Assembly: GCA_025454835.1 (NCBI GenBank)
Contig: JALONQ010000001.1
Location: 392,990-456,989, forward strand
Source of the DNA: Bacteroidota bacterium
GTDB taxonomy: Bacteria; Bacteroidota; Ignavibacteria; UBA10030
DNA length: 64,000 nt
Direction of reading: 5' to 3'
The translations under genes and the position numbers were made by a program. Positions 1,811 through 33,541 of the stretch are shown one piece after another (position 1 is the first letter of the stretch; the number at the start of each line of letters is the position of its first letter). Under the pieces are notes generated by a model that was not told the origin of the DNA, did not search any database, and saw only the letters and a program-made list of their open reading frames with translations.

Positions 1811-2004
1811 GGCATGGGCCCTTCGGACCGGTCCGCTGAGTGACGCTCATCGCGAACGTCGAGGATGATGCGATACCAGCAATGCTTGCACATGAGCGCC
1901 CGGTCGACGCTCAGGAGCACTTGTTCCCATCGGCTGAGGGAATGCCCGCAGTGCGGACACGTCTCAATCGGCGACGGGGGTCGTGGCTGTTGATCCGTTG
2001 CCAT
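1807..2004 (-). CDS. Candidate 65-aa zinc-ribbon micro-protein (CPHC-x21-CKHC), translationally coupled to the downstream gdh
   Basis: ORF overlaps the 3' end of the upstream 1016-aa gene by 41 nt; its TGA stop overlaps the gdh ATG as ATGA (1807-1810); two CxxC pairs. Could be chance in high-GC DNA. Confidence 0.25.
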   Translation of the reverse strand: MATDQQPRPPSPIETCPHCGHSLSRWEQVLLSVDRALMCKHCWYRIILDVRDERHSADRSEGPMP

Positions 2005-5000
2005 GCTTCACACCCGGTTTCAATATGACGCCTTTGTTGGAATGCCCGTTGATGCGGATGAGCAGCGGGTCGGCGAAGCGGACATGCCGGACGAATTCCT
2101 GCGACGAATGCGGCGGTTGTGAGAGCAACCACTCCCAGTCGAGAAAGCCCAGGGATTCATTCCGGTCGACGCTGAAGTAAGCGACCATGAAGGAGGTGAT
2201 ATTCTGAAAGAAGTGCGATCCCTGCGACGGAGTCACGGCAAGGTCCCGGAACGACGATTCGACGATCGCCTTCGCCCCGCAGATCTCGTTCCACGCTACC
2301 GGGATCCCCAACCAGGGATCCAGACTTCCCCATCGGCCGACGCCGACGAGCAGATACGGCCGTCCTTCGGAAAGAAGGAGAGAATTGAAGTGGGCCACCT
2401 CGGCCGCCACGAGACGGCTTTTCGCCCGGTCGAACCGATGATCGTCGACGACGACGACGTCGCGGATATCGTCGATCACACCATTCCCAAGAACGCGTGA
2501 GCTCTGGCACACCAGCTCGTTCCGGTTGAACATTTCGACGTTCAGTTCGTCGATCTCCCGATGGAGCACCAACGGCCGCATCTGCAGAAGGCCGAATTCC
2601 TTGGGTCGGCCGGCGGGCGGCGTCAGATTCACCGCAAACTCCAGCTCGACGGGCGTGCCCATGCCCCACGTACCCATGTCGAGCAGAAGATCGACGACCG
2701 CTGGCAGCGGAAACGACCTGCCCCGGAGAAGAGGCCCGAATGTGACGAGCCGGATCCCCTCTCGCGAGATGCCGTCGACGACAACGTCGTTGTCGGGGGA
2801 GAAGGTCGAACCGACGGGCGCCAACGTTCCATGCGACTCTGCCACGCTCAGGTCGAAGGCGCTGACGTGTTGATCGGTCGTGACGTCCCAGACCGCCGAC
2901 TCCGTATCCTCATCAAGCCGGAGCGCGAAGAAATCCCGCTGCGTGGTCGCGATGGCCTCATCGGCGGAGTAGAATTGGATGAGGTCGGTCGGATAGCGTG
3001 GACAGAACCGGACGACCGTTCCGCCTTCGACCACCATCTTGCCAAGCCCAAGCGCCACAGCCACGGTGCCGTCCGATGGCTTTTGCGTGGGGAGCGGGTA
3101 GAAATTGTATGACCGGGCCACGCCGGCGAAGCTTGGATAGAACGTCGCACCGTGGCGCGTCCCCACGAGCTTCTGGATGATCACCGCCATCTTCTCCTCC
3201 TCCTGGCGGTAACTCGTCATCCGAATGTAATTCTTTGCTCCTTGATAGTACGTCGACGCATAGACCCGCTTGATCGTCGTCAGGAGCTCGTTGAGCCGGA
3301 CAAGAGGATTGGCGTGCGTGTTCGGGAGCATGTACGTCTCGTACACTCCGGCGAACGGATGGTACTGCGAGTCCTCAAGGAGGCTCGAAGAGCGGACGGC
3401 GAGCGGAGCCCGCACGAGGTCGAGGAAGGCCACGAGCGCGGCCACCGCCTTTTCCGGAAAGTACGAGGCTTCCACGAATCGGCGCGTGATCTCCAGGTCA
3501 TCCGTGCTTGTCAGGGCAAAAGACCGCAGGCCGTTCGTGTCCACAAAATCGTCGAACACGTCGGTCGCAACGACGACCGCAGGGGGAACGGCGACCTCCA
3601 CCCCCCCGAACCGGTTGCGCACGTCGTAGTCGTTGATGATCGTGCTGATGAAACCCAGGCCGCGTCCCTTGCCCCCGAGCGATCCGCCGCCGATCCGGGC
3701 GAAGCTGCTGTCGGGGTCGAACGTGTCCCGGGCAAACTCGGCAATGATCCCGCGTTGCCTGACGGCGCGATACTCGCGGAGCGATTCGATGAGGTCCACA
3801 CGCAGGGCCTCACCCGTCGGATAATCGCTCACCTTGCGCGGCCGGAGCCGGTGGGCAAGCCAGAACTCCGTCCTCGCCTTCAACCAGTTCGAGAAGTGAT
3901 TCCGCTCCGCATGGTAGATGATGCTCTCGACCGGGACCCGGGCGAGCTGCTCCTCGAGCAGCCGCATGTCGCCCGCACGACCCACCTCCATCCCTCCTGG
4001 CATCCGGAATACGAAGTCGCCGAAGCTGAAGTACTGCATCATGAACGACCGGATATCCGACTGGAGAGTTGGGGAATCCTTGACGGAGAAGGCGGCGCCT
4101 TCGCCATGCGCCCGCGGCCCATTGTCGGGATTGTTCGAAAGGAGAAGCATCGGAAGGTCCGGCTGGCGTTGCTTCACCCGTCGGGCGAACTCGAGTCCCG
4201 ACCCGGCATCAAGTTTGCCGTCCCGCGGAAATTCGATGTCGGAGATGATGCCCAGCATGAAATCGCGGTAACGATCGTAGGTCTCCCAGGCCTCTTCGAA
4301 CGTCGTGCACAGAAGGATCTTCGGACGAGCGCGCATGCGCAGGAGTTTGTGGGAGAGGTTGATCCCCTCCGAAAGGAGTCGCCGCGACTGCTCCAACACC
4401 TCGGTATAGACCACTGGAAGGAGCGACGAGTACGCTTTGACGTTGTCTTCAACGACCACGATCGTTTGGACTCCCACCATGCTCGCATCGTGGGCGACGT
4501 TCATCCGGTCTTCGAGATACTTGATGATGGCGATGATGATCCGGAAGTCACCTTGCCATACGAACACCCTGTCGAACGCGTTGGGCGACGCCGACAGTAG
4601 GAGCTGCTGTAGCTCCCGGTTGTCGTGCGTCAGAAGCACGACAGGGATATTGAGACCCTCCTCCTTCACGAGGCGTGAGAAATGCGCCGCGTGCATGTCA
4701 TCGATGTGCAGCGTCGTGACGATCAGGTCAAAGCGCCGCTCTTCCTTCGCCAGCCGGATGGCCTCCCGGCCGCTCGAAACGCGCGTGAGCTCAGGAGAAT
4801 ACCCGAGGTTGAATCCCTCATACTCGTTGCGGATCAACTCGTAGAGCCGGCCGTCCTCCTCGAACAGATACAGATCGTACAGGCTCGACACCAGCAGGAT
4901 ATCGCGGATGCGGAGCCGCATCAGGTTCTGGAAACCCTGGAAGCGATTGCCGTATCCGTGCTCGACGAGGAGGATGTCGAGCGAGGAGGCCGTTTGTTCC

Positions 5001-5014
5001 TGGCTGGGATGCAT
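1964..5014 (-). CDS. Multidomain protein: degenerate receiver-like domain + canonical CheY-like receiver + PEP/pyruvate-binding (PPDK_N, ATP-grasp) domain + conserved C-terminal region of unknown function (paralog 1)
   Basis: IVVVEDN...GIISDIEFPRDG...LLLSNN...FSVKDSP is a canonical receiver; N-terminal ILLVSS/FDLIVTT copy lacks the acidic pocket and phospho-Asp. GGGSLGGKGRGLG, AVRSSSLLEDSQYHPFAGVYETY, MAVIIQ, GLGKMVVEGG match PpsA/PPDK N-domain motifs. No GGxxSHAAI His-swivel or TIM-barrel domain. Confidence 0.8.
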   Translation of the reverse strand: MHPSQEQTASSLDILLVEHGYGNRFQGFQNLMRLRIRDILLVSSLYDLYLFEEDGRLYELIRNEYEGFNLGYSPELTRVSSGREAIRLAKEERRFDLIVTTLHIDDMHAAHFSRLVKEEGLNIPVVLLTHDNRELQQLLLSASPNAFDRVFVWQGDFRIIIAIIKYLEDRMNVAHDASMVGVQTIVVVEDNVKAYSSLLPVVYTEVLEQSRRLLSEGINLSHKLLRMRARPKILLCTTFEEAWETYDRYRDFMLGIISDIEFPRDGKLDAGSGLEFARRVKQRQPDLPMLLLSNNPDNGPRAHGEGAAFSVKDSPTLQSDIRSFMMQYFSFGDFVFRMPGGMEVGRAGDMRLLEEQLARVPVESIIYHAERNHFSNWLKARTEFWLAHRLRPRKVSDYPTGEALRVDLIESLREYRAVRQRGIIAEFARDTFDPDSSFARIGGGSLGGKGRGLGFISTIINDYDVRNRFGGVEVAVPPAVVVATDVFDDFVDTNGLRSFALTSTDDLEITRRFVEASYFPEKAVAALVAFLDLVRAPLAVRSSSLLEDSQYHPFAGVYETYMLPNTHANPLVRLNELLTTIKRVYASTYYQGAKNYIRMTSYRQEEEKMAVIIQKLVGTRHGATFYPSFAGVARSYNFYPLPTQKPSDGTVAVALGLGKMVVEGGTVVRFCPRYPTDLIQFYSADEAIATTQRDFFALRLDEDTESAVWDVTTDQHVSAFDLSVAESHGTLAPVGSTFSPDNDVVVDGISREGIRLVTFGPLLRGRSFPLPAVVDLLLDMGTWGMGTPVELEFAVNLTPPAGRPKEFGLLQMRPLVLHREIDELNVEMFNRNELVCQSSRVLGNGVIDDIRDVVVVDDHRFDRAKSRLVAAEVAHFNSLLLSEGRPYLLVGVGRWGSLDPWLGIPVAWNEICGAKAIVESSFRDLAVTPSQGSHFFQNITSFMVAYFSVDRNESLGFLDWEWLLSQPPHSSQEFVRHVRFADPLLIRINGHSNKGVILKPGVKHGNGSTATTPVAD

Positions 5015-5079
5015 GTCGTCGCGTGAGCCCGCGGACGAGGCGATGCATGTCCCCGTCCGCGGGCGGTCCGCGCCTTCGT

Positions 5080-6441
5080 TTACACGACGCCCTGGTCAAC
5101 CATGGCGTCGGCGACCTTCAAGAAGCCGCCGATGTTCGCGCCGTTGACGTAGTTTCCGGGCGTTCCGAACCGGTCGGCCATCTCGACGCACGTCTTGTGG
5201 ATGCTCTTCATGATGAGATGGAGCCGCTGGTCCACCTCTTCGCGTGTCCACGGAAGCCTCATGCTGTTCTGAGACATTTCGAGACCGGACGTGGCCACGC
5301 CACCGGCGTTCGCCGCCTTGCCCGGACCGTACAGCACCTTCGCGTCGAGGAAGACCTTCACTCCGTCGGGCGTCGTCGGCATGTTCGCGCCCTCGGCGAT
5401 ACAGTGTACGCCGTTCCGCACGAGCGTTGCCGCGTCTTTGCCGTTGATCTCATTCTGCGTGGCGCTCGGAAAGGCGCAATCGGCCTTGTGCGTCCACAGC
5501 GGATTCGCGTCGGCCTTCGGATCGATCGGGAAATAGACCGCGCCCTTGTACTTGTCGGTGTATTCCTTCATCCGTCCACGACGGACGTTCTTCAATTGCA
5601 TGACAAAGGCCAGCTTCTCCCGGTCAATGCCCGCCTCATCATAGATATAGCCGTTCGAATCCGACAACGTGACCGCCTTGCCACCGAGGTCGAGGATCTT
5701 CTCGACCGTGTACTGGGCCACGTTGCCGCTGCCCGACACCAGGCAGCTCTTTCCCTTCAGCGTCGTTGAGCGCGTACCGAGCATTTCCGCCGCGAAGTAC
5801 ACCGCACCGTAGCCCGTCGCTTCCGGACGGATGAGCGACCCCCCCCAGTTGAGCCCCTTGCCCGTCAAGACGCCGGTGAACTCGTTCCGGAGCTTCTTGT
5901 ACATGCCGAACAGATACCCGATCTCACGTCCACCGACCCCGATGTCGCCGGCCGGTACGTCGGTGTTGGGACCAATATGGCGGGACAGTTCGGCCATAAA
6001 AGCCTGGCAGAACCGCATGATCGAGAGCTCGCTCTTTCCCTTCGGGTCAAAGTCCGATCCACCTTTGCCCCCGCCCATCGGAAGCGTTGTCAGGCTGTTC
6101 TTGAACACCTGTTCGAATGCCAGAAACTTCAGGATCCCGAGCGTGACGGAAGGATGGAATCGCAATCCTCCCTTGTAGGGTCCGATCGCGCTGTTCATCT
6201 CGATCCGATAGCCCCGGTTGACATGGATGTCCCCTCGGTCGTCGACCCAAGGAACACGGAAAGTGATCACGCGCTCGGGTTCGACCATCCGTTCCAGGAT
6301 CCGGGCCGTGCGGTACTCCGGATGCCGCTCGAGAACGAGCGCGAGTGAATCGACGACCTCCTGAACGGCTTGGTGAAATTCCGGCTCCGCAGGATTCTTC
6401 GCCTTCACTTCAGCCATGAAATCAGAGACGAAAGTTGACAT
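5080..6441 (-). CDS. gdhA: NADP-specific glutamate dehydrogenase, ~50 kDa GdhA type (copy 1)
   Basis: Strong similarity to E. coli-type GdhA (NPAEPEFHQAVQEV, GPYKGGLRFHPSV, LPMGGGKGGSDFDPKGKS). Start moved from the track's 6528 to ATG 6441 (MSTFVSDF), preceded by GAGGAGG. Confidence 0.9.
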   Translation of the reverse strand: MSTFVSDFMAEVKAKNPAEPEFHQAVQEVVDSLALVLERHPEYRTARILERMVEPERVITFRVPWVDDRGDIHVNRGYRIEMNSAIGPYKGGLRFHPSVTLGILKFLAFEQVFKNSLTTLPMGGGKGGSDFDPKGKSELSIMRFCQAFMAELSRHIGPNTDVPAGDIGVGGREIGYLFGMYKKLRNEFTGVLTGKGLNWGGSLIRPEATGYGAVYFAAEMLGTRSTTLKGKSCLVSGSGNVAQYTVEKILDLGGKAVTLSDSNGYIYDEAGIDREKLAFVMQLKNVRRGRMKEYTDKYKGAVYFPIDPKADANPLWTHKADCAFPSATQNEINGKDAATLVRNGVHCIAEGANMPTTPDGVKVFLDAKVLYGPGKAANAGGVATSGLEMSQNSMRLPWTREEVDQRLHLIMKSIHKTCVEMADRFGTPGNYVNGANIGGFLKVADAMVDQGVV

Positions 6442-6534
6442 AGAAACCTCCTCGCAGGTGAGTTGTGGAGCGTGATGGGGCTGGGCCCTACCAGAAACCG
6501 CCACGAGCCCGTATGGCGTCGAACGCAACAGCGA

Positions 6535-9531
6535 TCAGGTCACTCCGGGTTTCAGGATGACCCCGCGATTCTTGTGCCCATTGATCTTTGCGATCAGCGG
6601 CCGGTCGAAACACAGGTGTCGGGCCATCGAAAGCTCACGGACGGCCGGCTGCGAACGCAACCAGTCCCAGTTCACCCGCCCGAGGTGTTCGAACGGGTTG
6701 ACGGTGAAGTATCCTACACGGAACGACGTGATGTTCTGGAAGAAATGCGATCCCTGGGACGGTGTTACATTGAAATCGCGGAAGGCCGACTCGACGATGA
6801 CCGAGGCGCCGGCGATCTGATCCCAGCTGACCGGTATTCCAAGCCAATGGTCGAGACTTCCCCAGCGACCGACTCCGATGAGGATGTAGGGACGCTTCTG
6901 TGAGAGCAGGACCGCATTGAGCTCAGCGACCTCGCTCGCCACGAGCTTGCTCTGTTCCCGATCGAACGATTCGATGTCGACGACGATAGCATCGTAGATA
7001 TCGTTGATCATCCCGTTGCCGAGCACCCGTTCGCTCGAGCAAACCACGTCGGCCTCTTCGTAGGTGCCGATCTCAAGCTCATCGAGCTCCCGATGGAGCA
7101 CCATCGGACGGATCTGCAACATCGCGAACTCCTGCAGCCGACCATCCAGACCGGTGAGCGTCGCCGCGAACTCGATCTCGACGGGCGTGCCCATACCCCA
7201 CGTTCCCATTTCGAGCATGAGATCGACGATCTCAGGCAGCGGAAAGATCTGATGCTTGAGGACCGGAGCGAAGGTTACAACGCGCTTGCCTGGACGCGAG
7301 ATGCCGTCATACACGGCCTCGTTCTCGGGGGACCAGGTTGAACCGACGGCGTACAGCGTTCCGTCTGCCTCGGACGATGCGAGGTCGTAGCGGCAGATGA
7401 AGGTCTCGGGGGCATGCGCCGCACCATCGCGCAGGTCAGCCTCCAGGTCGAGGGCATAGAACTGTTGCTGCGCGTGCTTGATCGTTTCGTTCGTCGAGTA
7501 GAACTGCATGAGATGGCGCGGATGCTTCGGGCAGAACCGGACGACATTGCCGCCGTCGACGACGGTCTTGCCAAGGCCGAGAGCCACCTGGACGATGCCG
7601 TCGGTCGCAGACTGCGGTGGTACTGGATAGAAATTGTAGGATTTCGCCACGCCGGCAAAATCGGGATAGAAGCGGCCATTGTGCCGTTCGCCGACCACAC
7701 ACTGGATGATCACGGCCATCTTCTCTTCTTCGAGCCGATAGGCCGTGGCCTTCATGTAGTCCCGTGCCTGCCTCGCGAACGTCGAGGCATAGACCAGCTT
7801 GATGCTCTCGATGAGCTCTTGCATCCGGAGGTGCTTGTCCGGATTGTTGTTCGGGATCATATACGTCTCGTAGACCCCTGCGAACGGCTGATACTGTGCG
7901 TCCTCCAGCAGGCTCGACGAGCGGATCGCCAGCGGCTCCTTGACGATGTCAAGATAGTCCCAGAGTTTGCGGACCACCTCGTGGGAGAAGTGCGGGGCCT
8001 CGAGGAATCGATCCCGGAGTTCCTTGTCGTCCGGTCCCGACAGTGCGAACGCCTCCAGATGATTCTTCTCGAGGAACTCGTCGAAGACATCCGTGGCGAT
8101 GATGACAGCCGAGGGAACGCTGATGACCACGCCCGGGAAGCGGTGGCGGAGACCGTAGTTATTGATGAGCGAATTGACGAATCCCAGGCCGCGCGCCTTG
8201 CCACCGAGCGATCCGCCACCCATCCGTGCCAGGGTATTCTTCGGGTCGAAGCTCTCCGCCGAGAACTCGAGAATGACCCCGCGCTGGCGCATCTCGCGGT
8301 ACCGACGCAGATCGCCGATCAGCGATTGGCGGAGCGCTTCTGGCGTAGGATAGTCATCGACCTTCTGGGGCCGGAGCCGATATGCCAGGCCGAACTCCGT
8401 TCGGGCCTTCAGCCACTTCGAAAAGTGATTCCGGTTCGCGTGGAAGACGATCGACTCCTCCGGCACCGACATGAGGCCTTCTTCGAGCGTCGTGAGATCG
8501 ACCGCCCGGCCGACCTCGGTTCCATCAGCCATTCTGAACTGGAAATCGCCGAAACCGAAGTTATTGAGAACAAAGGCCCTGAGCTCGTGCAAGAGTCGGG
8601 GATCGCCTTTCCGGAGGAATGCGGCACCGCACTCGTGCGCCGACGCTTCAAAGTCCGTATTGCTCGACTGGAGCAGCACGGGAATATCGTCTTGAAGCTC
8701 GCGGACTTTGCGTGCGAAGAGGAGCCCGGCCTCCGGGTCCTTCACGCCGTTGCGGACGTAGTTAACGTCGGAGACAATACCGAGGACGTGCTCTCGATAG
8801 GTCTGGAATGCCGCCCACGCCTCGTCGTACGTGTGACAGAGCAGGATCTTGGGCCTGGCGCGCATGCGCAGCAGCCGGTGAGAGATGTTGACGCCTTCAC
8901 GGATCAGGCGTTGCGATTGATTGAGGACCTCCGAATAGAGGATGGGCAGGTAGGAAGAGTAGAATTTGACATTGTCTTCGACGAGGATGATCACCTGCAC
9001 GCCGGCCATCCGGGTGTCCTCTTCGACATTGCGCCGGTCCTCGATATCCTTGATGATGGCGATCAGAAGCCGGTAGTCGCCGAGCCAGATGAAGATGCGC
9101 TCGAAGATCGACGTGTCGTACTGCGTCACGATCTCTTTGCGCTCCTGGTTGTCATACGCGAGGAGGATGATCGGGATGTCGTACCCGGCGGCGCGGACCG
9201 CCTGCGCGAACTTCACGACATGCATATCCTCAATATGCATCGTCGAGATAATGAGGTCGAACGCTCGGCCGTCCCTCATGAGCTCGAGGGCTTCGGCAGC
9301 CGTCGAGGCGTGGGTGAACTCGGGAACGAAGCTCAGATTAAGAGCCATCGCCTCCTGGTGCACGAGTTCGTACAGCCGGCCATCCTCTTCGAACAGATAG
9401 TTGTCGTAGAGGCTCGAGACCAGGAGGATGTCGCGGACACGGAAGCGCATCAAGTGCTGAAAGCTCTTGATGCGGCTCCCCTGGATGTCTTCGGTATGGC
9501 GGAGGTCGGCGTTCTCCATCATCATCGGCAT
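6535..9531 (-). CDS. Paralog 2 of the receiver/receiver/PPDK_N-domain protein (998 aa)
   Basis: Collinear with 1964..5014 (~60% identity): VIILVEDN...GIVSDVNYVRNG, MGGGSLGGKARGLG, AIRSSSLLEDAQYQPFAGVYETY; identical C-terminal blocks VGRWGSLD.WLGIPV.W and VTPSQGSHFFQNITSF. Confidence 0.8.
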   Translation of the reverse strand: MPMMMENADLRHTEDIQGSRIKSFQHLMRFRVRDILLVSSLYDNYLFEEDGRLYELVHQEAMALNLSFVPEFTHASTAAEALELMRDGRAFDLIISTMHIEDMHVVKFAQAVRAAGYDIPIILLAYDNQERKEIVTQYDTSIFERIFIWLGDYRLLIAIIKDIEDRRNVEEDTRMAGVQVIILVEDNVKFYSSYLPILYSEVLNQSQRLIREGVNISHRLLRMRARPKILLCHTYDEAWAAFQTYREHVLGIVSDVNYVRNGVKDPEAGLLFARKVRELQDDIPVLLQSSNTDFEASAHECGAAFLRKGDPRLLHELRAFVLNNFGFGDFQFRMADGTEVGRAVDLTTLEEGLMSVPEESIVFHANRNHFSKWLKARTEFGLAYRLRPQKVDDYPTPEALRQSLIGDLRRYREMRQRGVILEFSAESFDPKNTLARMGGGSLGGKARGLGFVNSLINNYGLRHRFPGVVISVPSAVIIATDVFDEFLEKNHLEAFALSGPDDKELRDRFLEAPHFSHEVVRKLWDYLDIVKEPLAIRSSSLLEDAQYQPFAGVYETYMIPNNNPDKHLRMQELIESIKLVYASTFARQARDYMKATAYRLEEEKMAVIIQCVVGERHNGRFYPDFAGVAKSYNFYPVPPQSATDGIVQVALGLGKTVVDGGNVVRFCPKHPRHLMQFYSTNETIKHAQQQFYALDLEADLRDGAAHAPETFICRYDLASSEADGTLYAVGSTWSPENEAVYDGISRPGKRVVTFAPVLKHQIFPLPEIVDLMLEMGTWGMGTPVEIEFAATLTGLDGRLQEFAMLQIRPMVLHRELDELEIGTYEEADVVCSSERVLGNGMINDIYDAIVVDIESFDREQSKLVASEVAELNAVLLSQKRPYILIGVGRWGSLDHWLGIPVSWDQIAGASVIVESAFRDFNVTPSQGSHFFQNITSFRVGYFTVNPFEHLGRVNWDWLRSQPAVRELSMARHLCFDRPLIAKINGHKNRGVILKPGVT

Positions 9532-9619
9532 GTCACCATCCGTCAGTTCGCAACCGCTGCGATGCCACCGGACGGTATGCGTCTGGAGCCTTCGTCCGGC
9601 AGATCCGGACGGTCCCCGA

Positions 9620-10960
9620 CTACACCAGCCCCTGGTCCATCATCGAGGTCGCCACCTTCAGGAATCCGGCGATGTTCGCACCGGTAACGTAGTTCCCCGG
9701 TGCGCCATACGTCCGTGAGACTTCGAGACAGGTGTCGTGGATCGTTGTCATGATCTGATGGAGGCGCTGGTCGACCTCGTCGCGGGGCCAAGCCAGCCGC
9801 ATGCTGTTCTGACTCATTTCGAGGCCCGAAGTGGCCACCCCGCCGGCGTTCGACGCCTTGCCGGGCGAGAACAGCACCTTCGACTCCTCGAACACGCGGA
9901 TACCGCCCAGCGACGTCGGCATGTTCGCGCCTTCGCAGACGCAGAAGCATCCGTTCTTCACGAGTTCTTTCGCGTCATTCTCGTCGAGCTCATTCTGCGT
10001 CGCGCACGGAAGTGCCACGTCGACCTTCGTGCCCCACGGCCGCTTGCCGGCGTGGAATTCGACCTTGAACTTGTCGGCGAAGTCTTTCACGCTGTCGCGG
10101 GCGCTGGCCCGCATCTCGAGCATGTATTCGATCTTCTCCCCTGAAATGCCGCTCGGGTCGTGGACGAACCCGTCCGGTCCTGAGAGGGTGACGACCTTCG
10201 CGCCGAGTTGGGTCGCCTTCAAGACGGCGCCCCATGCCACGTTGCCGAAGCCGGAGACCGCCACGCGCAACCCGTCGAAGCTCTTGCTGCGCGTCTTGAG
10301 CATCTCCTGCGCAAAGTAGACGACGCCGAAACCGGTCGCCTCGGGCCGGATACGTGAGCCACCCCAATTGAGGCCCTTGCCCGTCAGGACGCCGGAGAAC
10401 TCGCGCGTCAGGCGCTTGTACTGGCCGAACAAGTACCCGATCTCACGCGCGCCGACGCCAATATCGCCCGCAGGCACGTCGATGTCTGGACCGATATGCC
10501 GGTAGAGCTCCGTCATGAAGCTCTGGCAGAACCGCATCACCTCAAGATCGCTCTTCCCCTTCGGGTCGAAATCCGAACCGCCTTTGCCGCCTCCCATGGG
10601 GAGCGTCGTGAGGGCGTTCTTGAAGACCTGCTCGAACGCCAGGAACTTCAAAGTGCCGAGTGTGACCGACGGGTGGAAGCGCAGACCGCCTTTGTAGGGA
10701 CCGATGGCGCTGTTCATTTGAACGCGAAAACCCCGATTGACGTTGAACTCGCCACGATCGTCGAACCAAGGGACGCGGAAGATCACCACGCGTTCGGGTT
10801 CGACCATCCTTTCGAGGATCTTCGCCGAGCGGTATTCGGGGTGGCGTGCCAGCACCGGCTCCAGGGAATGCAATACCTCTTGTACTGCTTGATGGAACTC
10901 GGGTTCCGCGGGGTTCTTCGTCTTGACCAGGGTGAGGATCGATTCAGAGTAGGAATTCAT
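9620..10960 (-). CDS. gdhA: NADP-specific glutamate dehydrogenase GdhA (copy 2, ~85% identical to copy 1)
   Basis: Same motifs as copy 1. Start moved to ATG 10960 (MNSYSESILTLVKTKNPAEPEF), preceded by GGAGAA. Confidence 0.9.
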   Translation of the reverse strand: MNSYSESILTLVKTKNPAEPEFHQAVQEVLHSLEPVLARHPEYRSAKILERMVEPERVVIFRVPWFDDRGEFNVNRGFRVQMNSAIGPYKGGLRFHPSVTLGTLKFLAFEQVFKNALTTLPMGGGKGGSDFDPKGKSDLEVMRFCQSFMTELYRHIGPDIDVPAGDIGVGAREIGYLFGQYKRLTREFSGVLTGKGLNWGGSRIRPEATGFGVVYFAQEMLKTRSKSFDGLRVAVSGFGNVAWGAVLKATQLGAKVVTLSGPDGFVHDPSGISGEKIEYMLEMRASARDSVKDFADKFKVEFHAGKRPWGTKVDVALPCATQNELDENDAKELVKNGCFCVCEGANMPTSLGGIRVFEESKVLFSPGKASNAGGVATSGLEMSQNSMRLAWPRDEVDQRLHQIMTTIHDTCLEVSRTYGAPGNYVTGANIAGFLKVATSMMDQGLV

Positions 10961-11192
10961 AGAAGGTTCTCCAAGGGACTCGGATTTCAGTTCCTGCAGC
11001 GGAGGTGGTAGGGAGGGATCTCCGCGTTGGACAGTTCGCCGCTCTGGCAGCAATCGTCATGCCCGAGGACGGGTACAGATGTTCCTCCAAATTCAGTGGA
11101 AATGCAAGGCAGACAATCGGTGCCACGCCCACATGGGACTTCCGGAGGACCATTTCTTAGCGGTGGGAAGGCTATTCCCGGGAAGACGCACG

Positions 11193-11227
11193 GTGCAAAA
11201 ACGCGAAGGTCCCCGGAGAGGGGACCT
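11193..11227 (-). terminator. Rho-independent terminator after the B12-uptake gene cluster
   Basis: Minus-strand RNA GGUCCCCUCUCCGGGGACC followed by UUCGCGUUUUUGC, 24 nt downstream of the stop of the 175-aa membrane protein. Confidence 0.6.
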
Positions 11228-11250
11228 TCAAAGGCACAGACCGGAAACGT

Positions 11251-11778
11251 TCAACGGGATGCGGGTTCTGTCGACATCGCCCAGGAAGGCATCCAGCGGC
11301 GGGCGAACTCGAACGTGCCCGAGAGGATGGCGACATACACAAGGTCCCCGAGCACCGTGTTGCGGAAGAAGGGAATGGCGACCACATAGCATTCAACGAG
11401 GCCCGCCCACGTTTTCGGATAGACGCCTCCATCTCCCACCAACCACACACCGAAATTCGTCACAAGGAAGAAGAACACCGATCCGCCGAGCGTTGCGCCG
11501 GCAACGACGGGCACGGACCGGCGATCGCGCAACCAGAGGCCGATCGCACTGCTCGCGGCAAAGCTGACATAGACGAACGGCATGATGCCATGCATGCCCA
11601 GGAAGAGGTCGCTCACGAGCATCGCCGCCAACGGAAGGATGAAGGCATACCGGCGATCGAGATACAACGCGCCCGTGAGGGCCAACGCCGCCAGCGGGGT
11701 CACGTTGGGCGGGTGCGGCAGGAACCGCGTGAGCGCGGCAATGCCGATGACGACCGTGGCGAAAAGAACGTGCTTCAT
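11251..11778 (-). CDS. Small polytopic membrane protein (175 aa, ~5 TM), function unknown; the 3'-most CDS of the riboswitch-btuB gene cluster
   Basis: Hydrophobic segments throughout; 57-nt gap to the upstream propeller gene, same strand, followed by a terminator. Confidence 0.6.
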   Translation of the reverse strand: MKHVLFATVVIGIAALTRFLPHPPNVTPLAALALTGALYLDRRYAFILPLAAMLVSDLFLGMHGIMPFVYVSFAASSAIGLWLRDRRSVPVVAGATLGGSVFFFLVTNFGVWLVGDGGVYPKTWAGLVECYVVAIPFFRNTVLGDLVYVAILSGTFEFARRWMPSWAMSTEPASR

Positions 11779-11835
11779 ATCAGCCTCCAGGTGAACGTAT
11801 GCGTGAATGATGGTACAGAAAAATCCGTTCGCATG

Positions 11836-12960
11836 CTACGGCAGGAAGACAAATCCATTCGGCGCCACGCCGATCCCTGCAACATAGGTCCGCACGGGGG
11901 TTCCCGACAGCGTGTGTACCTGCACGGTCCCATTGCTGACGAAATCGCCGGCCAGCGACAGATACAGTTCCGAGCGCGCGCGGTCCACGCCAACGCCATA
12001 GAAGTTCCCGGCGACGAGCAATGTCGACACGATCATCGGCGATGATCCTCCGGTCAGTTTCATCACACCCGATCCTCCCGCCCCGGAGACCGTGACGTAG
12101 AGGTCTCCCGATGCATCCACCGCGATCCGACCGGCGGGCTGGGAGAGGCGAACCGTATCGACCACATTGCCGGAGGCCCCGTCGATCGTCAGTACCGCTC
12201 CGGGCACGTCGAGCCCTCCTCCCCACGCCACCGATCCCGTGCACAGGACATGCATCAGTCCGGAAGTCCCGAGCACCCCGTATGACGGTCCGTGTGGCGT
12301 CGAGATCGTCGCCATCACGTTGTCGGTCTTCAGGTCGATGACGCTCACGCTCGAACCGTATCCCCATCCCCCATTGAAGACATACAGCCGGTCGCCGAAT
12401 CGGATCAATCCCTCCGGGTTGGTTCCGACGACGATCTCCTTGGCCACGACACCTCCGCTCAGGTCGAGCACGGAGACCGTTGAGTCCATATTCGTCACAT
12501 AAGCTAGGAGAGACGAGACGACCTCAATGGATCGCGGGGCGCGCGTGAGCATGATCGTCTGCAGCCAACGATGTGTGCCCGCTTCGATCACTTCGATCTT
12601 CCGGGAGTTGTTCACGACGACATACAACTTGCCGTTGGCGAGGGCAGCATGTTGGGCAACGTCTCCGAGCGTCCGTCCTGAATTGGCGGTCGAGAACACG
12701 GCCCCCGAGACGTTCGTCCGGTCCTCACCAATGAACGAGATCTCCGCGTTCGAAGCCAAGAACGACCCTTCGTTGATCACGTAGATGCCCTTGGGTCCAC
12801 TGACGGCTGGACCCGGGTCGACGACCGGGTCGCACCCTCCTCCAAGAATGACCGCCAGAAGCATGGAGCACACCCAGCCACCACGAAGGCGGATCTGTCG
12901 ACCTCGACTGAGGCCGCCGTTCACTGAAGATCCTGACACTGCACTACTCTCATTCGTCAT
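11836..12960 (-). CDS. Beta-propeller lipoprotein (YVTN/YncE-like repeats); candidate BtuG-like surface B12-binding protein
   Basis: Repeated blade-like motifs (LYVVVNNS, AYVTNMDSTVSVLD, LYVFNGG, LYVTVSG); lipobox LLAVILGGGC if translation starts at the internal ATG (12864). Sits immediately downstream of the btuB-like gene. Confidence 0.6.
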   Translation of the reverse strand: MTNESSAVSGSSVNGGLSRGRQIRLRGGWVCSMLLAVILGGGCDPVVDPGPAVSGPKGIYVINEGSFLASNAEISFIGEDRTNVSGAVFSTANSGRTLGDVAQHAALANGKLYVVVNNSRKIEVIEAGTHRWLQTIMLTRAPRSIEVVSSLLAYVTNMDSTVSVLDLSGGVVAKEIVVGTNPEGLIRFGDRLYVFNGGWGYGSSVSVIDLKTDNVMATISTPHGPSYGVLGTSGLMHVLCTGSVAWGGGLDVPGAVLTIDGASGNVVDTVRLSQPAGRIAVDASGDLYVTVSGAGGSGVMKLTGGSSPMIVSTLLVAGNFYGVGVDRARSELYLSLAGDFVSNGTVQVHTLSGTPVRTYVAGIGVAPNGFVFLP

Positions 12961-14857
12961 GTGCGATGAGACCTATGGAGACGCCCAACCTGAAGCTGCG
13001 GCCGGGGAGTGGATATCCGGGAATGGACGTACCGGCGACGTCTAGGAGATTGTCCACGGTACCGATCAAGCTCATGCGTCGACCGACGAAAACGCCCACG
13101 AGACGGCCGGCGACCGACACCCGCGTGGTCGGCGGAAGACTCAGAGCCGCCAGATTGTCCAGTGTCGTGAATCGCCGGGAAAGGTAGCGAACGACCGGAC
13201 TGAGGATGAGCGGGCCCACGCTCACGTCCAGACCTGTCGAAGCGAGCCACCGCGGAACAAAGGGTACTTGCCGCCCCGGCAACGAGGGCGACCTCGATTC
13301 CACCATGGCGTAGGTGGCATTCGCCCACCACCGGAAGACCCCCGTCCGCCAGACGGCGTTCACATCGGCCCCTTCGCTCACCGTACGCGCCAAGTTGACC
13401 GGTGGCCATCCGGTGATCCGGTCGCGCGTGTCCGCGAAGAAGGCGTTGATGGAAGCTGAGAAAGCGCCGTCGGGGTGCGTCCTCAAATGGACTCCCGCGT
13501 CGGCCGTCACCACGCGTTCCGGCCGCAGATGCGGGTCGCCCCCCGGCTGCCAATACAGCTCATTGAAGTTGGGAGTGCGCACACCCGCGCCAAGACTGGC
13601 CCTGGCCGTCAGCATCCCGTCAGCGACAAGGGGCAACTCGGCGGCCAGCCGGGGACCGAATGAAGGACGCTGGTCCGACATCAGCTCCCAACGGACCATG
13701 GGCAGGATCCTCAAGCCGGAAGTGCCGTTCGTCCAGTCGGCCGAGGATGTGATGCTTGCCGCGACCCTCCGTGTTTCTTGCGTGAAGGCGTCTCCCTCAA
13801 GTTCCGCCGTCGAGACCTCAATCCCGGTTCCGGCCACCACCGCGTCTGAGATCCTCCACCGCCCCTGAACCCAGCCGCTCAGGATCCTGGTGACGAATCG
13901 ATCGGGGGGCGTAATGATGTCGTTCCGTTCCTCATACGACTCCTCTTGAAAAGAGGCCGACATTCCGCCTTCCCAACCAGTCCCGCCTGCTTCCTGGTGT
14001 ACGGCTCGGATGACAAGGTGGGCGACCTTGTCCCGAAGGCGGGCCAACGTCGTCGGTCCGGCGGTGACCGGTCCCGGCGATCCGCGGTCGGAGGAAACGG
14101 CCATGACAGTCGCTTCGACGTGGCCCCACGGGACTCCATGTACGACGGCCGAAGCAGCAGCGTGCCAGCGCTGGTACGACGCTCCTTCCCTCAACCGATC
14201 GGAAGCGCCGTCGGCGTCGACCCACGTGAATGGAAAGTCGCCGTCCGAACGGTCCACGCCGAATCGAACGCTCGTGGAGGCATATCGCCCAGCCTGATCC
14301 CACCGTAGATCAGCGCCCCCTTCGCCAAACGACCCGGAGCGCGCGCCGATCGTCAGGTCGTTCTTCATCGAGGGCCAGATCCCGAGCACGACGGCTCCGG
14401 CATTGGCGTCGGAGCCGAACAGAAGGGATTGTCCTCCCCGCACGACCGCGACCGCGTCGAAGATCGCCGCGGGATACAGGCCAAAGTCGACAAGGCTGTT
14501 CTGCGGACTGTTCAGCCGCATGCCATTCAACTGGACGACGGTCTGGGTTGCAGGAGCGTTTCGCAGGCTCACCGTCTTGATCCCACCCGGGCCGCCGATG
14601 TCACGAATGAACAGTCCTCCTTCGTCTTCGAGGACGGCGTCGAGCGACCGCCCGTCGAGCCGGCGGATCGACCATCCGTCCAGCCGAACGACGGTACCCA
14701 TCGTCTCTGCCGACCTCGGCACCAGTCGCGTCGCCGACACGACCACGACCGGCTGGGTGTAGCTTACTGATGAATCCGCAACGGACTGGCCCAGGAGGAC
14801 GTCCGAGGACGTCTGCACCAATAGGCAGATTGCGGCATGGGAGATGCGTCGATACAT
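12950..14857 (-). CDS. btuB: TonB-dependent outer-membrane receptor, BtuB-like (635 aa)
   Basis: Plug-domain motifs (VVVSATRL, DAVLEDEGGLFIRDIGGPGG..VSLRN, G.RL), long beta-barrel region; sits directly downstream of a cobalamin riboswitch. Confidence 0.8.
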   Translation of the reverse strand: MYRRISHAAICLLVQTSSDVLLGQSVADSSVSYTQPVVVVSATRLVPRSAETMGTVVRLDGWSIRRLDGRSLDAVLEDEGGLFIRDIGGPGGIKTVSLRNAPATQTVVQLNGMRLNSPQNSLVDFGLYPAAIFDAVAVVRGGQSLLFGSDANAGAVVLGIWPSMKNDLTIGARSGSFGEGGADLRWDQAGRYASTSVRFGVDRSDGDFPFTWVDADGASDRLREGASYQRWHAAASAVVHGVPWGHVEATVMAVSSDRGSPGPVTAGPTTLARLRDKVAHLVIRAVHQEAGGTGWEGGMSASFQEESYEERNDIITPPDRFVTRILSGWVQGRWRISDAVVAGTGIEVSTAELEGDAFTQETRRVAASITSSADWTNGTSGLRILPMVRWELMSDQRPSFGPRLAAELPLVADGMLTARASLGAGVRTPNFNELYWQPGGDPHLRPERVVTADAGVHLRTHPDGAFSASINAFFADTRDRITGWPPVNLARTVSEGADVNAVWRTGVFRWWANATYAMVESRSPSLPGRQVPFVPRWLASTGLDVSVGPLILSPVVRYLSRRFTTLDNLAALSLPPTTRVSVAGRLVGVFVGRRMSLIGTVDNLLDVAGTSIPGYPLPGRSFRLGVSIGLIAHDE

Positions 14858-14868
14858 CGATCAGGTAC

Positions 14869-14902
14869 AAGAAAAGGCCCCGTCTCCGGAGGAGAAGGGG
14901 CC
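14869..14902 (-). terminator. Terminator hairpin of the riboswitch expression platform
   Basis: Minus-strand RNA GGCCCCUUCUCCUCCGGAGACGGGGCC followed by UUUUCUU, ending 11 nt before the btuB ATG. Confidence 0.6.
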
Positions 14903-14967
14903 AAGGGGTGCGCCGAATGGCGCAACCAACGATCCCGGTCCCTTCCCGCGAAGGCACGGTGCAGTTG

Positions 14968-15161
14968 CGATCTGGCAGGTCTCCTGGCTCTCCCGGCACC
15001 GACCGCCTTCTCAACCCTCCCGGGTCAATGGCGTTTCCGTCGATGCGCAGGCCCTTGCGGGCCGGGATCACAGTTGCGGGGCAGCTTCCGAATGGTCCCG
15101 CCGGAGCGGGACGCACGGAATTCCCTTTTCATCCCGCCGTGCGCGGCGGGACACCAGATCG
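14968..15161 (-). promoter_or_regulatory. Cobalamin (B12) riboswitch
   Basis: On the minus strand: P1 halves CGAUCUGG / CCAGAUCG; GGUGUC...AAAAGGGAA; GCUGCCCCGCAACUGU; B12-box GAGCCAGGAGACCUGCC (fits the rAGYCMGgAgaCCkGCC consensus). Lies in the 5' UTR of the BtuB-like receptor. Confidence 0.85.
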
Positions 15162-15240
15162 TGATGAGACAAAGAACAGGACACAAACAACGTACGCCAA
15201 GGATCAGCCAAACGCAACCAACGCTTCCAGATCTCGGACC

Positions 15241-16956
15241 TCAGTACCCTACCGCGCCGCCGTCGGGATCGCGCGGGTCCGCCACGCCCCAACGGAGCCT
15301 CGTCGCCGGATCGACGAGGATGCCGTGCACGCGGCCCTGCGTTCCACCGAAGGACACGCGATGACCTTTGGCCCGCAACAGTTCCTCCGTGTCCCTCGAG
15401 ACGCCGAACCTCTCGATCCTTAGCACGTTCGGTTGCCACTGATGGTGGACCCGCTTCGCGGCCACCGCATCGATAAGGCTCATGCGATGGTCGACGAGAT
15501 TCAGCGTCACCTGCAGCACGGTATTGATGATCGTCCGGCCTCCAGGGCTCCCGATGAGCGCCCACGGCTGCCCATCCTTCATGATGATCGTCGGGGTCAT
15601 GCTCGACAACATCCGCTTCCCCGGTGCCACACGATTGGCCTTCGTACCGATGAACCCCAACGAGTCGGTGCGTCCAGGGACAGGGTTGAAGTCTCCCATC
15701 TCGTTGTTGAGGAGGAAGCCCAGCCCATCCGCAACGATACGCGATCCGTAGCCGTATTCCAGCGTGTACGTGACCACCACGGCGTTCCCCTCGGCGTCCA
15801 CGACCGAATAGTGGGTCGTCTGATCGCTTTCCGACGCTGATTCGACGGCGCTGACAGGGATGTCGCCGGCCCGCGCGCGGTCGATTCCCGCCCGCACGTG
15901 CTCGGCATACGTTTTTGAGGTGAGACGAGCGATCGGAAGCTGCGAGTTCGCGTCGGGGTCGCCCATGTGCGCTGCGCGGTCCGCAAACGCCCGCCGCATG
16001 GATTCGGTCACGAGATGAAGATACTCCGCCGAATTGTGGCCCAGGGCTTGGAGATCATACCCTTCGAGGATATTCAGCATTTCGATGAGCGCCGTACCGC
16101 CGGAACTCGGCGGGGGCATCGACACGATCTCGTGATCCCTGTATGTTCCTCGAATCGGAACGCGCTCGACGGCTTCGTACTCATTGAGGTCCGCCTCGCT
16201 GACGAGGCCTCCGTTCGCCCGCATGTCGACAGCCAGCAGGCGGGCCGTCGTACCTTGGTAGAATCCGTCGCGTCCGTCCGTCATGATGCGCCGGAGCGTC
16301 TCGGCCAGGTCGGGCTGCTTCCACGTCTCCCCCATTTGGTAGTTCGACCCGTCGGGCTTGAGGAAGACCTTGGCTGATGCGGGATAGCGTTTCCAGTCCG
16401 CCGTCAGGGCCTTAAAATCTGACGCCATGGACCAACTCAGCGGAAAGCCCTCTGCGGCGAGCCGCACGGCCGGCTCCGTCACCTCGCTCCAGGCCCGCGT
16501 ACCGAACCGACGCAGTGCCAGATCGAATCCTGCGATCGTGCCCGGCACCCCGACGGACAAGTAGCCCTCGTGGTTGAGGTCGTCAACGTACCGACCGTTC
16601 GCATCCAGGTACATCCGTTCGTGTGCCCCGGCAGGCGCCTTCTCCCTGAAATCGAAAGAGGTGGTCGTGCCATCCTTCCACCGGACGATCATGAATCCCC
16701 CGCCGCCGATATTCCCGGCGGCGGGATGAACGACAGCCAACGCCAATCCGGTGGCAACCGCCGCGTCCACAGCGTTTCCGCCCGACTTCAGCACCTCCAT
16801 CCCGACGCGAGAAGCCAGGACGTGTGCCGACACGACCATGCCGTGCTTCGCGACGGACGGACCGTTCGACGTCTGATCGGCGACTGTGACCGAGGGCGGT
16901 GCACAACCCCAGGTGACCGCAACCAGGGCGAGAGAGGCGAGGATGGCACGACGCAT
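15241..16956 (-). CDS. ggt: Gamma-glutamyltranspeptidase (lipoprotein-type signal peptide)
   Basis: GGT family motifs (GGGFMIV, TTHYSVVD, GSPGG); start moved to ATG 16956 (MRRAILASLALVAVTWGC), leaving a 10-nt gap after ssb. Confidence 0.85.
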   Translation of the reverse strand: MRRAILASLALVAVTWGCAPPSVTVADQTSNGPSVAKHGMVVSAHVLASRVGMEVLKSGGNAVDAAVATGLALAVVHPAAGNIGGGGFMIVRWKDGTTTSFDFREKAPAGAHERMYLDANGRYVDDLNHEGYLSVGVPGTIAGFDLALRRFGTRAWSEVTEPAVRLAAEGFPLSWSMASDFKALTADWKRYPASAKVFLKPDGSNYQMGETWKQPDLAETLRRIMTDGRDGFYQGTTARLLAVDMRANGGLVSEADLNEYEAVERVPIRGTYRDHEIVSMPPPSSGGTALIEMLNILEGYDLQALGHNSAEYLHLVTESMRRAFADRAAHMGDPDANSQLPIARLTSKTYAEHVRAGIDRARAGDIPVSAVESASESDQTTHYSVVDAEGNAVVVTYTLEYGYGSRIVADGLGFLLNNEMGDFNPVPGRTDSLGFIGTKANRVAPGKRMLSSMTPTIIMKDGQPWALIGSPGGRTIINTVLQVTLNLVDHRMSLIDAVAAKRVHHQWQPNVLRIERFGVSRDTEELLRAKGHRVSFGGTQGRVHGILVDPATRLRWGVADPRDPDGGAVGY

Positions 16957-16966
16957 GATGCAGGCC

Positions 16967-17401
16967 TCAGAACGGTAGATCGTCGTCCTTGGCGGAAGGT
17001 CCGGGACCGGTCGGAGGCGAGGAAGGCCCGGGGTCCGAGGCTCCGCCGCCGGCGGCGGCGTCACGATTGCGGCCGTCGAGCATCACCATCTGATCGATGA
17101 CGATCTCCGTGACGTAGCGCTTCACGCCGTTCTTGTCGTCGTACGTTCGGTATTGCAGACGGCCTTCGACGTAGATCTTGCTCCCCTTCTTGAGGTATTC
17201 ACCGATGACCTCCGCCAGTTTCCGCCAGGCGACGAGGTTGTGCCATTCGGTGCGTTCCTGCGTGTTGCCCTCGGCATCGCGCCATGACTCGTTGGTGGCG
17301 AGCGTGAATGTGGCAACGGCGACACCGCTGCCGGTGTAGCGCACTTCGGGATCTTTCCCGAGGTTGCCGATCAAGATGACCTTGTTGACGCTGCGTGACA
17401 T
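16967..17401 (-). CDS. ssb: Single-stranded DNA-binding protein
   Basis: OB-fold SSB N-terminus ([19 protein letters not shown]), Gly/Pro-rich linker, acidic tail DDDLPF. Confidence 0.9.
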
Positions 17402-23105: not shown

Positions 23106-23153
23106 CTGATAGTCTCCTTGATCGTCGTGAAGAACACGAGTTCTGCGTTCACC

Positions 23154-26927: not shown

Positions 26928-27024
26928 AGGTTGAAGCTCCTTATGGTTGAACTCGTGGCGGAGATCTTGGTTGTCAGTATGGCGACCAGGCGTCCGCCGT
27001 CGCACGGCGGACGCCCGCAGTCGC

Positions 27025-32105: not shown

Positions 32106-32237
32106 GGATTCTTCCTTTCAGTCAATAAGTCGAACCGCCATGGCGCCAAGTCCGGGGGATGCGGATATCAACATCTCGTTCTGACTTGGCGTCTTGGCGG
32201 TTGTGGATCGCCTCCGGCACGCCGGAGAACAGGAGTC

Positions 32238-33371: not shown

Positions 33372-33493
33372 GTCGTGCTCAGGCTGAGAGGTGGCGAGAG
33401 AGTTAGGTACCACGCTCGAAATATATGGAGCGGTCAGGCCAGAAGCCACGTCGGGCGCTCGCCGGCATGCGAGGGGGGGGCATGAACGACGAA

Positions 33494-33516
33494 GGGCATC
33501 GATCGTCTCGATGCCC
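33494..33516 (-). terminator. Candidate hairpin terminator downstream of engB
   Basis: Minus-strand RNA GGGCAUCGAgacgaUCGAUGCCC followed by UUCGUCGUU; weak U-tract. Confidence 0.3.
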
Positions 33517-33541
33517 CTCGGAACCACGATATGAAGCGGGT

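Follow-up and report, generated by a model that had tools for sequence, protein, structure and literature searches.

Some branch-point enzymes of carbon and nitrogen metabolism are served by a large enzyme that is specific for them and encoded beside them; AceK, GlnE and PDRP/PSRP are the examples that the proteins described here resemble in concept, and by analogy only. Glutamate dehydrogenase (GDH) connects carbon metabolism with nitrogen metabolism and is a main route of ammonia assimilation in Bacteroidota, which are not known to have the classical GlnE/NtrBC logic. Reversible inactivation of GDH in vivo was reportedly described for Bacteroides fragilis in 1987, and in the 1996 study of B. 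thetaiotaomicron GdhA a downstream fragment of ~3 kb is said to have restored activity in Escherichia coli. As its title puts it, the activity of B. thetaiotaomicron GdhA depends on trans-acting genes near gdhA (Baggio & Morrison 1996). Here, we describe a GDH gene cluster in a window of 64,000 nucleotides from a Bacteroidota bacterium (Ignavibacteria, UBA10030; GenBank assembly GCA_025454835.1, contig JALONQ010000001.1, positions 392,990 to 456,989), in which each of two gdhA genes is followed by a gene for a protein of about 1000 residues, designated X, that carries receiver domains and an ATP-grasp domain. GDH–X pairs occur across numerous bacterial phyla and extend to Bacteroides of the human gut; they are probably the mark of a hitherto undescribed system controlling this central nitrogen enzyme.

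Organisation and conservation of the GDH gene cluster

The genes gdhA1, X1, gdhA2 and X2 are consecutive on the minus strand at 1964–11053 (Table 1). A preliminary description of the region had reported two paralogous same-strand pairs over this span, each with gdhA followed by X, and spacers of 65–93 nt; the coordinates bear this out, and the spacers measure 88, 93 and 65 nt with ATG starts. The four genes do lie there, but 11053 is the end of a TTG-extended open reading frame (ORF), and gdhA1 likely starts at the ATG at 10960. The two gdhA–X modules share 66.8% DNA identity across 4364 nt, and the repeat is therefore not a chance resemblance. At the protein level, identity is 56.9% between X1 and X2, near the ~60% given earlier, and 65.6% between GdhA1 and GdhA2, well short of the ~85% once assigned to them. 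Both GdhA proteins (G1 and G2) are predicted to use NADP, scoring 735 and 749 bits, respectively, against the NCBIfam equivalog NF006929 for NADP-specific GDH (cutoff 536).

The view of the locus as a two-gene module overlooked a third GDH gene, gdh3, which starts 153 nt downstream of X2. Its product, G3, matches the Pfam families ELFV_dehydrog (E 8e-70) and ELFV_dehydrog_N (E 2e-56), and PDB entry 1bvu over residues 5–415 (E 4e-139); its subfamily is only ~30% identical to the NADP-type GdhA proteins. Conservation was assessed in a close-relative set consisting of the best 80 of at least 542 relatives, one genome per species, in which metagenome-assembled genomes carry the labels Ignavibacteriota, Bacteroidota, Calditrichota, Acidobacteriota, and Chlorobi. 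A G3-type gene (68–82% identical) lies directly downstream of the X2-type gene in 59 of 73 testable loci, and the unit therefore comprises five genes and reaches beyond the span given above. The region is a widely conserved, ancient five-gene cluster, gdhA1-X1-gdhA2-X2-gdh3.

In 66 of 77 testable loci, the X2-type gene is directly preceded, on the same strand, by a G2-type gdhA gene (77–86% identical), and at least one of the G2-type and G3-type genes adjoins X in 69 of 70 testable species-level genomes. The whole G1-X1-G2-X2(-G3) order occurs in about 20 loci, including those of Ignavibacteriota, Bacteroidota and Calditrichota; in these loci, G1-type orthologs are 74–80% identical to G1 and X1-type orthologs 60–67% identical to X1. 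Orthologs are thus nearer to their counterparts in the window than the window paralogs are to each other, and the duplication, already considered old in the preliminary description, predates the lineage split. Judging from these identities, it is ancient, and G1/X1 and G2/X2 are separate orthologous pairs, each X being kept with its own GDH.

The linkage extends to far more divergent proteins. A distant set of 80 loci was obtained from a metagenome scan with seeds only 30–40% identical to X2; a GDH gene adjoins X in 29 of the 59 testable loci and lies within 3 kb in 34. The arrangements vary: GDH was located upstream on the same strand in 23 cases, downstream on the same strand in 10, divergently in nine, and convergently in one. 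Conserved adjacency of gdhA across lineages, the check that the earlier work had called for, is therefore seen among both close and distant relatives. Some distant clusters combine a G3-type GDH, an X with receivers, a receiver-less X paralog (771 aa in L082, 629–13987), and an NADP-type GDH; genes for GltD-like/DHODB-type iron-sulfur oxidoreductases and a class-V aminotransferase flank the L082 cluster.

Members of the X family are also present in cultured gut Bacteroidales, namely Parabacteroides merdae, B. fragilis, B. xylanisolvens and Phocaeicola vulgatus. In B. xylanisolvens and B. fragilis (L105, 687–8889, and L137, 794–8889), X is divergent from an operon encoding an S9 prolyl oligopeptidase, a 445-aa GDH, and an M24 Xaa-Pro peptidase, which suggests a link of the Bacteroides X to peptide catabolism. 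Fourteen Ignavibacteria-type loci likewise have an M24 peptidase gene close to the cluster. In contigs of Jilunia, Bacteroides sp. CAG:443 and P. vulgatus, X is convergent with a gdh gene, and gene order around X differs among Bacteroidaceae. The occurrence of the family in Bacteroides, Phocaeicola and Parabacteroides provides a context for the 1996 report on B. thetaiotaomicron. BT_1971, considered as the gene beside gdhA in that species, was rejected because it is a catalase gene. The protein table of a two-dimensional difference gel electrophoresis study of B. fragilis lists NAD(P)H-utilizing GDH three times, as distinct spots with an identical mass (PMC4539542); such spots are compatible with charge isoforms and prove nothing.

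Domain structure of X

The X family comprises more than 7900 homologs, the best of which are only ~70% identical to X2. The anatomy of X was deduced from homolog alignments (first 15, then 71 sequences), fold searches and an AlphaFold model of X2 (AF2; mean predicted local distance difference test score 77), and residue conservation was scored in 119 members spanning ~33–100% identity. The protein consists of two N-terminal receiver domains (REC1 and REC2), a linker, an ATP-grasp domain, and a C-terminal domain with an invariant histidine. The preliminary description had recognised a canonical receiver, an additional degenerate one, and a nucleotide-binding domain of the type found in phosphoenolpyruvate (PEP) synthase and pyruvate phosphate dikinase (PPDK), and all three are borne out.

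REC1 keeps the receiver fold and has Ser/Ala at the DD positions and Thr/Met at the position of the phospho-acceptor Asp across the 119 members, lacking both the acidic pocket and the phospho-Asp of CheY-like receivers, and is a pseudo-receiver. REC2 has the full CheY-like set of an acidic pocket (E189/D190), a phospho-acceptor Asp (S258/D259), a Ser/Thr (S293), and a Lys (K312), with D259, S/T293 and K312 each conserved in 115 of 119 members; the receiver of a NarL-type response regulator aligns to it. In a Foldseek search, REC1 and REC2 together matched the tandem receivers of PleD (E 3e-8). The linker that follows weakly resembles DUF5752 (E 2e-4), a match below the Pfam cutoff. No DNA-binding domain was found in X by Pfam. 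By its receiver, X is a predicted response regulator, and no description of its output type was found.

The Pfam PPDK_N match (PF01326) covers profile positions 3–315 of 328, and all the motifs quoted earlier for this domain were found in X2. The best structural matches of the ATP-grasp domain are rifampin phosphotransferase (Rph; 5hv1, E 9e-12) and HpeI (9goj, E 8e-10), the alignment between Rph and X being confined to the ATP domain. The residues K449, R541, E547, D548, E790, E792, and Q811 are invariant in all 119 members.

The C-terminal domain also carries an invariant residue, His934, which is present in 119 of 119 members inside the motif PSQG[ST]HFF[QH]N. In the model, it is located at the start of a helix, after the beta-strand AKAIVES and a flexible loop, a placement that we take to be the same as that of the catalytic His of dikinases. 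The domain was found in 1917 clusters in a search of 1.84 billion representatives; it follows PPDK_N in every architecture examined, and therefore the two form one catalytic core. On these grounds, the C-terminal domain is a probable phospho-His carrier, and the former statement that X has no phospho-His swivel domain is doubtful and probably wrong. Its relationship to known swivel domains was sought in several ways. A Pfam search with the isolated C-terminal 200 residues of X2 yielded nothing at E ≤ 10, PDB sequence searches with X2 and the family profile gave matches confined to the ATP domain and the receivers, and a Foldseek search of the C-terminal model against PDB returned no significant match. 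Comparison by hhalign of the C-terminal alignments with five swivel-domain sequences (four taken from PDB alignments, and a PpsA segment of E. coli that its PDB hits confirmed as a genuine swivel domain) was non-significant. An alternative hhalign register, placing WLGIPV against ELGIPAVV, was rejected because the model shows no helix there.

The absence of the PEP-utilizer TIM barrel noted previously agrees with our data, since X has no PEP-utilizers_C match and the chain finishes after the His domain. Partial NCBIfam matches of X include PigC, RedH, PEPS, and Rph: PEPS equivalogs score 35–49 bits against cutoffs of 598–883, at N-domain positions only, and NF041857 (Rph) scores 23–35 bits against a cutoff of 999, aligned to Rph residues ~18–190 only. 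The assignment of X as a PEP synthase, PPDK or Rph was thus rejected: it has neither the TIM barrel nor the rifampin-binding domain and remains far below all equivalog cutoffs. Homologs of X are named in databases "PEP/pyruvate-binding domain-containing protein", "response regulator", "CheY-like chemotaxis protein" and "phosphoenolpyruvate synthase".

Receiver-less relatives in other phyla

A form of ~585 aa, consisting of the ATP-grasp and C-terminal domains only and lacking the linker, is 42–43% identical to residues 424–1000 of X2 and common in Planctomycetota, Krumholzibacteria, Longimicrobiales, and Acidobacteriia. In all seven contigs examined (L161–L167), from phyla that include Planctomycetota, Gemmatimonadota and Acidobacteriota, its gene directly follows a GDH gene of 418–430 aa, which shows that the association with GDH belongs to the catalytic core. 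The occurrence of receiver-less forms in other phyla also indicates that the Fibrobacterota–Chlorobiota–Bacteroidota (FCB) group acquired the receivers as an input module. The next gene in 7/7 contigs encodes a ~1060-aa paralog with an N-terminal domain of unknown type, PPDK_N, the same C-terminal domain with the motifs GPGRWGS and FGTHFFQD, and then a Pol-beta nucleotidyltransferase domain. A convergent metallophosphoesterase gene closes the four-gene cluster, likewise in 7/7 contigs (e.g., L163, 4702–11811). The nucleotidyltransferase and phosphoesterase that accompany the core are components to be expected in a modification/demodification cycle. Fused versions of 1500–1650 aa also occur (P0129, P0142), and in one Acidobacteriia contig receiver-bearing and receiver-less systems lie side by side.

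A reading of X as an anti-phage defence protein was rejected on the basis of a PADLOC scan, in which X1, X2 and the receiver-less short form matched none of the defence models; the long paralog and the metallophosphoesterase gave short local matches to candidate-system models only (PDC-S09, E ~1e-5; PDC-S10, E 3e-8).

Expression signals and a candidate kinase

Stem-loops with folding energies below those of shuffled sequences were predicted in the gdhA1–X1 and gdhA2–X2 spacers (Table 1). For the first 70 nt after the G2 stop codon, the median fold z-score across 62 homologous loci is −3.6, and in lower-GC genomes the post-G2 hairpins resemble canonical intrinsic terminators with T-runs. Hairpins placed between gdhA and X imply that X is probably expressed by read-through or from its own promoter, at a level far below that of GDH. 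Such scarcity is more easily reconciled with a regulator that acts catalytically than with a stoichiometric partner in a pathway.

The ORFs that were inspected within the first ~36 kb of the window include no histidine kinase gene. In 11–14 of the 80 related genomes, the cluster itself encodes, mostly between X1 and G2, a cytoplasmic kinase of PAS-PAS-HisKA_3-HATPase_c architecture and a regulator of the NarL/LuxR type (e.g., L004, 4277–6383; others include L005, L010, L013, L014, L041, L052, and L068). The embedded kinase is a candidate partner for the X receiver; a homolog of it is absent from the window.

Proposed function of X

The linkage and the domain anatomy support the earlier suggestion that X is a receiver-gated ATP-dependent enzyme connected to GDH. 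We propose, with confidence somewhat short of even, that X is a two-component-gated phosphotransferase acting on GDH. A histidine kinase, unlinked in the window, would phosphorylate Asp259 of the second receiver, and the pseudo-receiver/receiver tandem would turn on the C-terminal catalytic core in a PleD-like manner. The core would act like a rifampin phosphotransferase or a PEP synthase devoid of the PEP/pyruvate barrel: the ATP-grasp domain would bind ATP and charge His934 of the carrier domain with a phosphoryl (or pyrophosphoryl) group, which His934 would then hand on; the GDH hexamer encoded next to X is the likeliest recipient. GDH activity could thereby be switched post-translationally to fit the nitrogen and carbon status, each NADP-type GdhA having its own X paralog. 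The analysis establishes the domain anatomy, the linkage to GDH, and the conservation of catalytic and phospho-acceptor residues; catalysis through His934 and GDH as the acceptor are the steps that we infer. GDH is considered the likeliest target because there is one X per GdhA, the expression signals point to sub-stoichiometric amounts of X, no obvious small-molecule-binding domain is present, and a nucleotidyltransferase and a phosphoesterase accompany the core elsewhere.

A broader generalisation is more doubtful, although it may be worth considering: many phyla could have a dedicated system of covalent GDH modification built around an unrecognised family of ATP-grasp and phospho-His-carrier proteins, gated by receivers in the FCB group and associated with a nucleotidyltransferase and a phosphoesterase elsewhere. 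Such a system would be the GDH counterpart of GlnE (glutamine synthetase) and AceK (isocitrate dehydrogenase) and would explain the post-translational control of GDH that has long been reported in Bacteroides.

Several points weigh against a phosphotransferase acting on GDH. Adjacency cannot tell a protein target from a metabolite, and where a PPDK_N ATP-grasp domain and a phospho-His carrier occur together in known enzymes, the acceptor is a small molecule, water or phosphate; such enzymes are not known to phosphorylate proteins. The two GDH subfamilies linked with X are distantly related to each other, and a modification site shared by them is not obvious. Among the distant relatives, about 40% lack a GDH gene at distances up to 3 kb. 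In Bacteroides, X is divergent from the peptidase-gdh-peptidase operon and not downstream of gdh, so that the match to the 1996 report is unproven.

The explanation that survives best beside it holds that X is a small-molecule dikinase, like Rph, phenylphosphate synthase or HpeI, standing next to GDH; it could phosphorylate a metabolite of the glutamate/2-oxoglutarate node or a cofactor, or make a signal, with the receivers tuning the flux. The closest structural relatives of the ATP domain, Rph and HpeI, are indeed small-molecule phosphotransferases, the partial NCBIfam matches listed above also favour this explanation, and the partner nucleotidyltransferase and phosphoesterase could likewise act on a small molecule. 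However, X has no counterpart of the rifampin-binding domain or the PEP/pyruvate barrel, but just an excess of ~60 residues within the ATP-grasp region. Moreover, the terminators between gdhA and X suggest that X is far scarcer than GDH, one X paralog per GdhA paralog would be odd for a shared metabolite, and gating of a core metabolic step by a response regulator is unusual. We therefore regard a dikinase of this kind as unlikely, if still a serious competitor.

It is less probable that X is a regulatory binding partner of GDH that senses ATP or energy charge together with a two-component signal and transfers no phosphate to GDH, the His serving for autophosphorylation or as a conformational switch only. 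The linkage evidence applies to this case equally, a specific complex would suit the one-to-one association between X and GDH paralogs, and accessory proteins of GDH have precedents in GarA/OdhI and the Thermus GdhA-GdhB-APRTh complex. Invariance of the ATP-grasp catalytic residues and the His motif in 119 members nevertheless argues for chemistry, and the sub-stoichiometric amounts of X implied by the terminators would be a poor fit to a stoichiometric subunit of an abundant hexamer.

More improbable still is an atypical signalling kinase or phosphorelay, in which the His core would autophosphorylate and pass the group to Asp259 of the same protein or to another regulator, ultimately controlling gdh transcription. 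His and Asp sites do occur in one protein, one database record labels a homolog a histidine kinase, and a NarL-type DNA-binding regulator is encoded inside the cluster in some genomes. However, the GDH-linked cores of other phyla have no receiver in 7/7 clusters, and a receiver therefore cannot be an obligatory substrate of the core; tandem receivers at the N-terminus with an enzyme domain behind them are arranged as in a response regulator such as PleD; a DNA-binding domain is lacking in X; and the adjacent kinase, where present, is of the conventional HisKA_3 type.

Finally, inherited synteny of functionally unrelated genes, to which the predominance of related FCB-group lineages in the close set and the distant relatives with no nearby GDH gene might point, is barely credible, since the linkage survives changes in gene order, strand, GDH subfamily, domain architecture, and phylum, and with one to few GDH genes among the thousands in a genome chance adjacency would be expected in well under 1% of cases.

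If the proposed GDH-directed phosphotransferase is real, a GDH-specific, signal-gated, ATP-dependent family would constitute a new layer of nitrogen control and could resolve the old reports on control of GDH activity by trans-acting genes. Dikinase-type phospho-His chemistry would extend to a new variant of the carrier domain and possibly to a protein substrate. Homologs number in the thousands and range from Ignavibacteria of the environment to dominant genera of the human gut, and the members in cultured, genetically tractable Bacteroides, Phocaeicola and Parabacteroides make the hypothesis directly testable.

Other features of the window

The window has 62% G+C and encodes SusC-like receptors and a GWxTD domain, features that suggest an unsampled lineage of the FCB group. 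Upstream of the cluster, beyond the terminator that forms its boundary, genes for DUF6580 and DUF5074 proteins, a TonB-dependent receptor and gamma-glutamyltranspeptidase, another glutamate-related enzyme, occupy 11251–17064 (minus strand). Two ORFs of 348 and 1283 aa with no Pfam match are located at 22059–30141 (minus strand) beside a SusC-like TonB-dependent receptor with a CarboxypepD_reg domain; this region may be an uncharacterised uptake locus. At 30531–33527 (minus strand), a D-3-phosphoglycerate dehydrogenase gene with an ACT domain adjoins a class-V aminotransferase gene, and the pair looks like a serine biosynthesis pair of the serA/serC type.

Table 1. Features of the GDH gene cluster, with positions in the window
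Feature	Position	Strand	Basis
gdh3 (G3), Pyrococcus/Thermotoga-type hexameric GDH, 415 aa	563..1810	-	Pfam ELFV domains; PDB 1bvu
X2, 1016 aa, whole gene	1964..5014	-	PPDK_N E 2e-37; Response_reg
X2 C-terminal domain, aa ~834-1000, motifs GVGRWG and PSQGSHFFQN; probable phospho-His carrier	2015..2515	-	
X2 H934 codon	2213-2215	-	C-terminal domain
X2 ATP-grasp nucleotide-binding domain, PEP synthase/PPDK/Rph type, aa ~441-820	2555..3694	-	PPDK_N E 2e-37
X2 linker domain, aa ~329-420, two strands and a helical bundle	3755..4030	-	Secondary structure of model
X2 REC2, canonical receiver, aa ~181-320	4055..4474	-	E189, D190, D259, S293, K312; ~25-aa insert
X2 D259 codon (REC2 phospho-acceptor position)	4238-4240	-	Conservation
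X2 REC1, degenerate receiver, aa ~35-165	4520..4912	-	Weak Pfam Response_reg match, aa 71-133
14-bp GC-rich stem-loop in gdhA2-X2 spacer; terminator or attenuator candidate	5027..5064	-	Spacer fold z = -3.7
gdhA2 (G2), NADP-type family-I GDH, 453 aa	5080..6441	-	NF006929; PDB 5ijz E 2e-176
X1, 998 aa: pseudo-receiver, receiver, linker, ATP-grasp, C-terminal His domain	6535..9531	-	PPDK_N E 1.5e-34
X1 H929 codon	6745-6747	-	C-terminal His domain
X1 D255 codon (receiver)	8767-8769	-	Codon position
GC-rich stem-loop directly after gdhA1 stop codon, CGTCCGGATCTGCCGGACG	9593..9611	-	Spacer fold z = -2.3 vs shuffles
gdhA1 (G1), NADP-type family-I GDH, 446 aa	9620..10960	-	Pfam ELFV_dehydrog and ELFV_dehydrog_N; NF006929
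Intrinsic terminator of upstream DUF6580 gene; 5' boundary of GDH cluster	11204..11230	-	11-bp stem, 7 GC pairs, then T-run

Comparison with known systems

A literature search for the X architecture or for a GDH dikinase found nothing relevant. A dikinase-type core and a response-regulator input are each of a known kind, while the GDH-associated system itself is undescribed and phylogenetically broad. Compared with Rph, PEP synthase, PPDK, HpeI, PigC, and RedH, X is distinguished by the absence of both the PEP/pyruvate TIM barrel and the rifampin-binding domain, and by the addition of N-terminal tandem receivers, a helical linker and linkage to GDH genes. Its His domain of ~180 residues is unrecognised by Pfam and hhalign, with PSQG[ST]HFF[QH]N replacing the GGxTSHAA motif of dikinases. 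Enzyme I, including EI-Ntr, is charged by PEP via the TIM barrel, whereas X has an ATP-grasp domain; Enzyme I has neither receivers nor linkage to GDH.

Like PleD, X carries one phosphorylatable and one degenerate receiver in tandem ahead of an enzyme domain, but their order is reversed, with the degenerate receiver first, the canonical receiver has an insert of ~25 residues, and the output is an ATP-grasp/His core, not GGDEF. AceK and PDRP are unrelated to X in sequence and fold, and modification of GDH by X is a proposal. The fold class of GlnE, the Pol-beta nucleotidyltransferases, joins the X core in other phyla, together with a phosphoesterase. Unlike regulators of the GlnE, AceK and PDRP type, X is predicted to receive its input through a two-component receiver and not from PII or metabolites.

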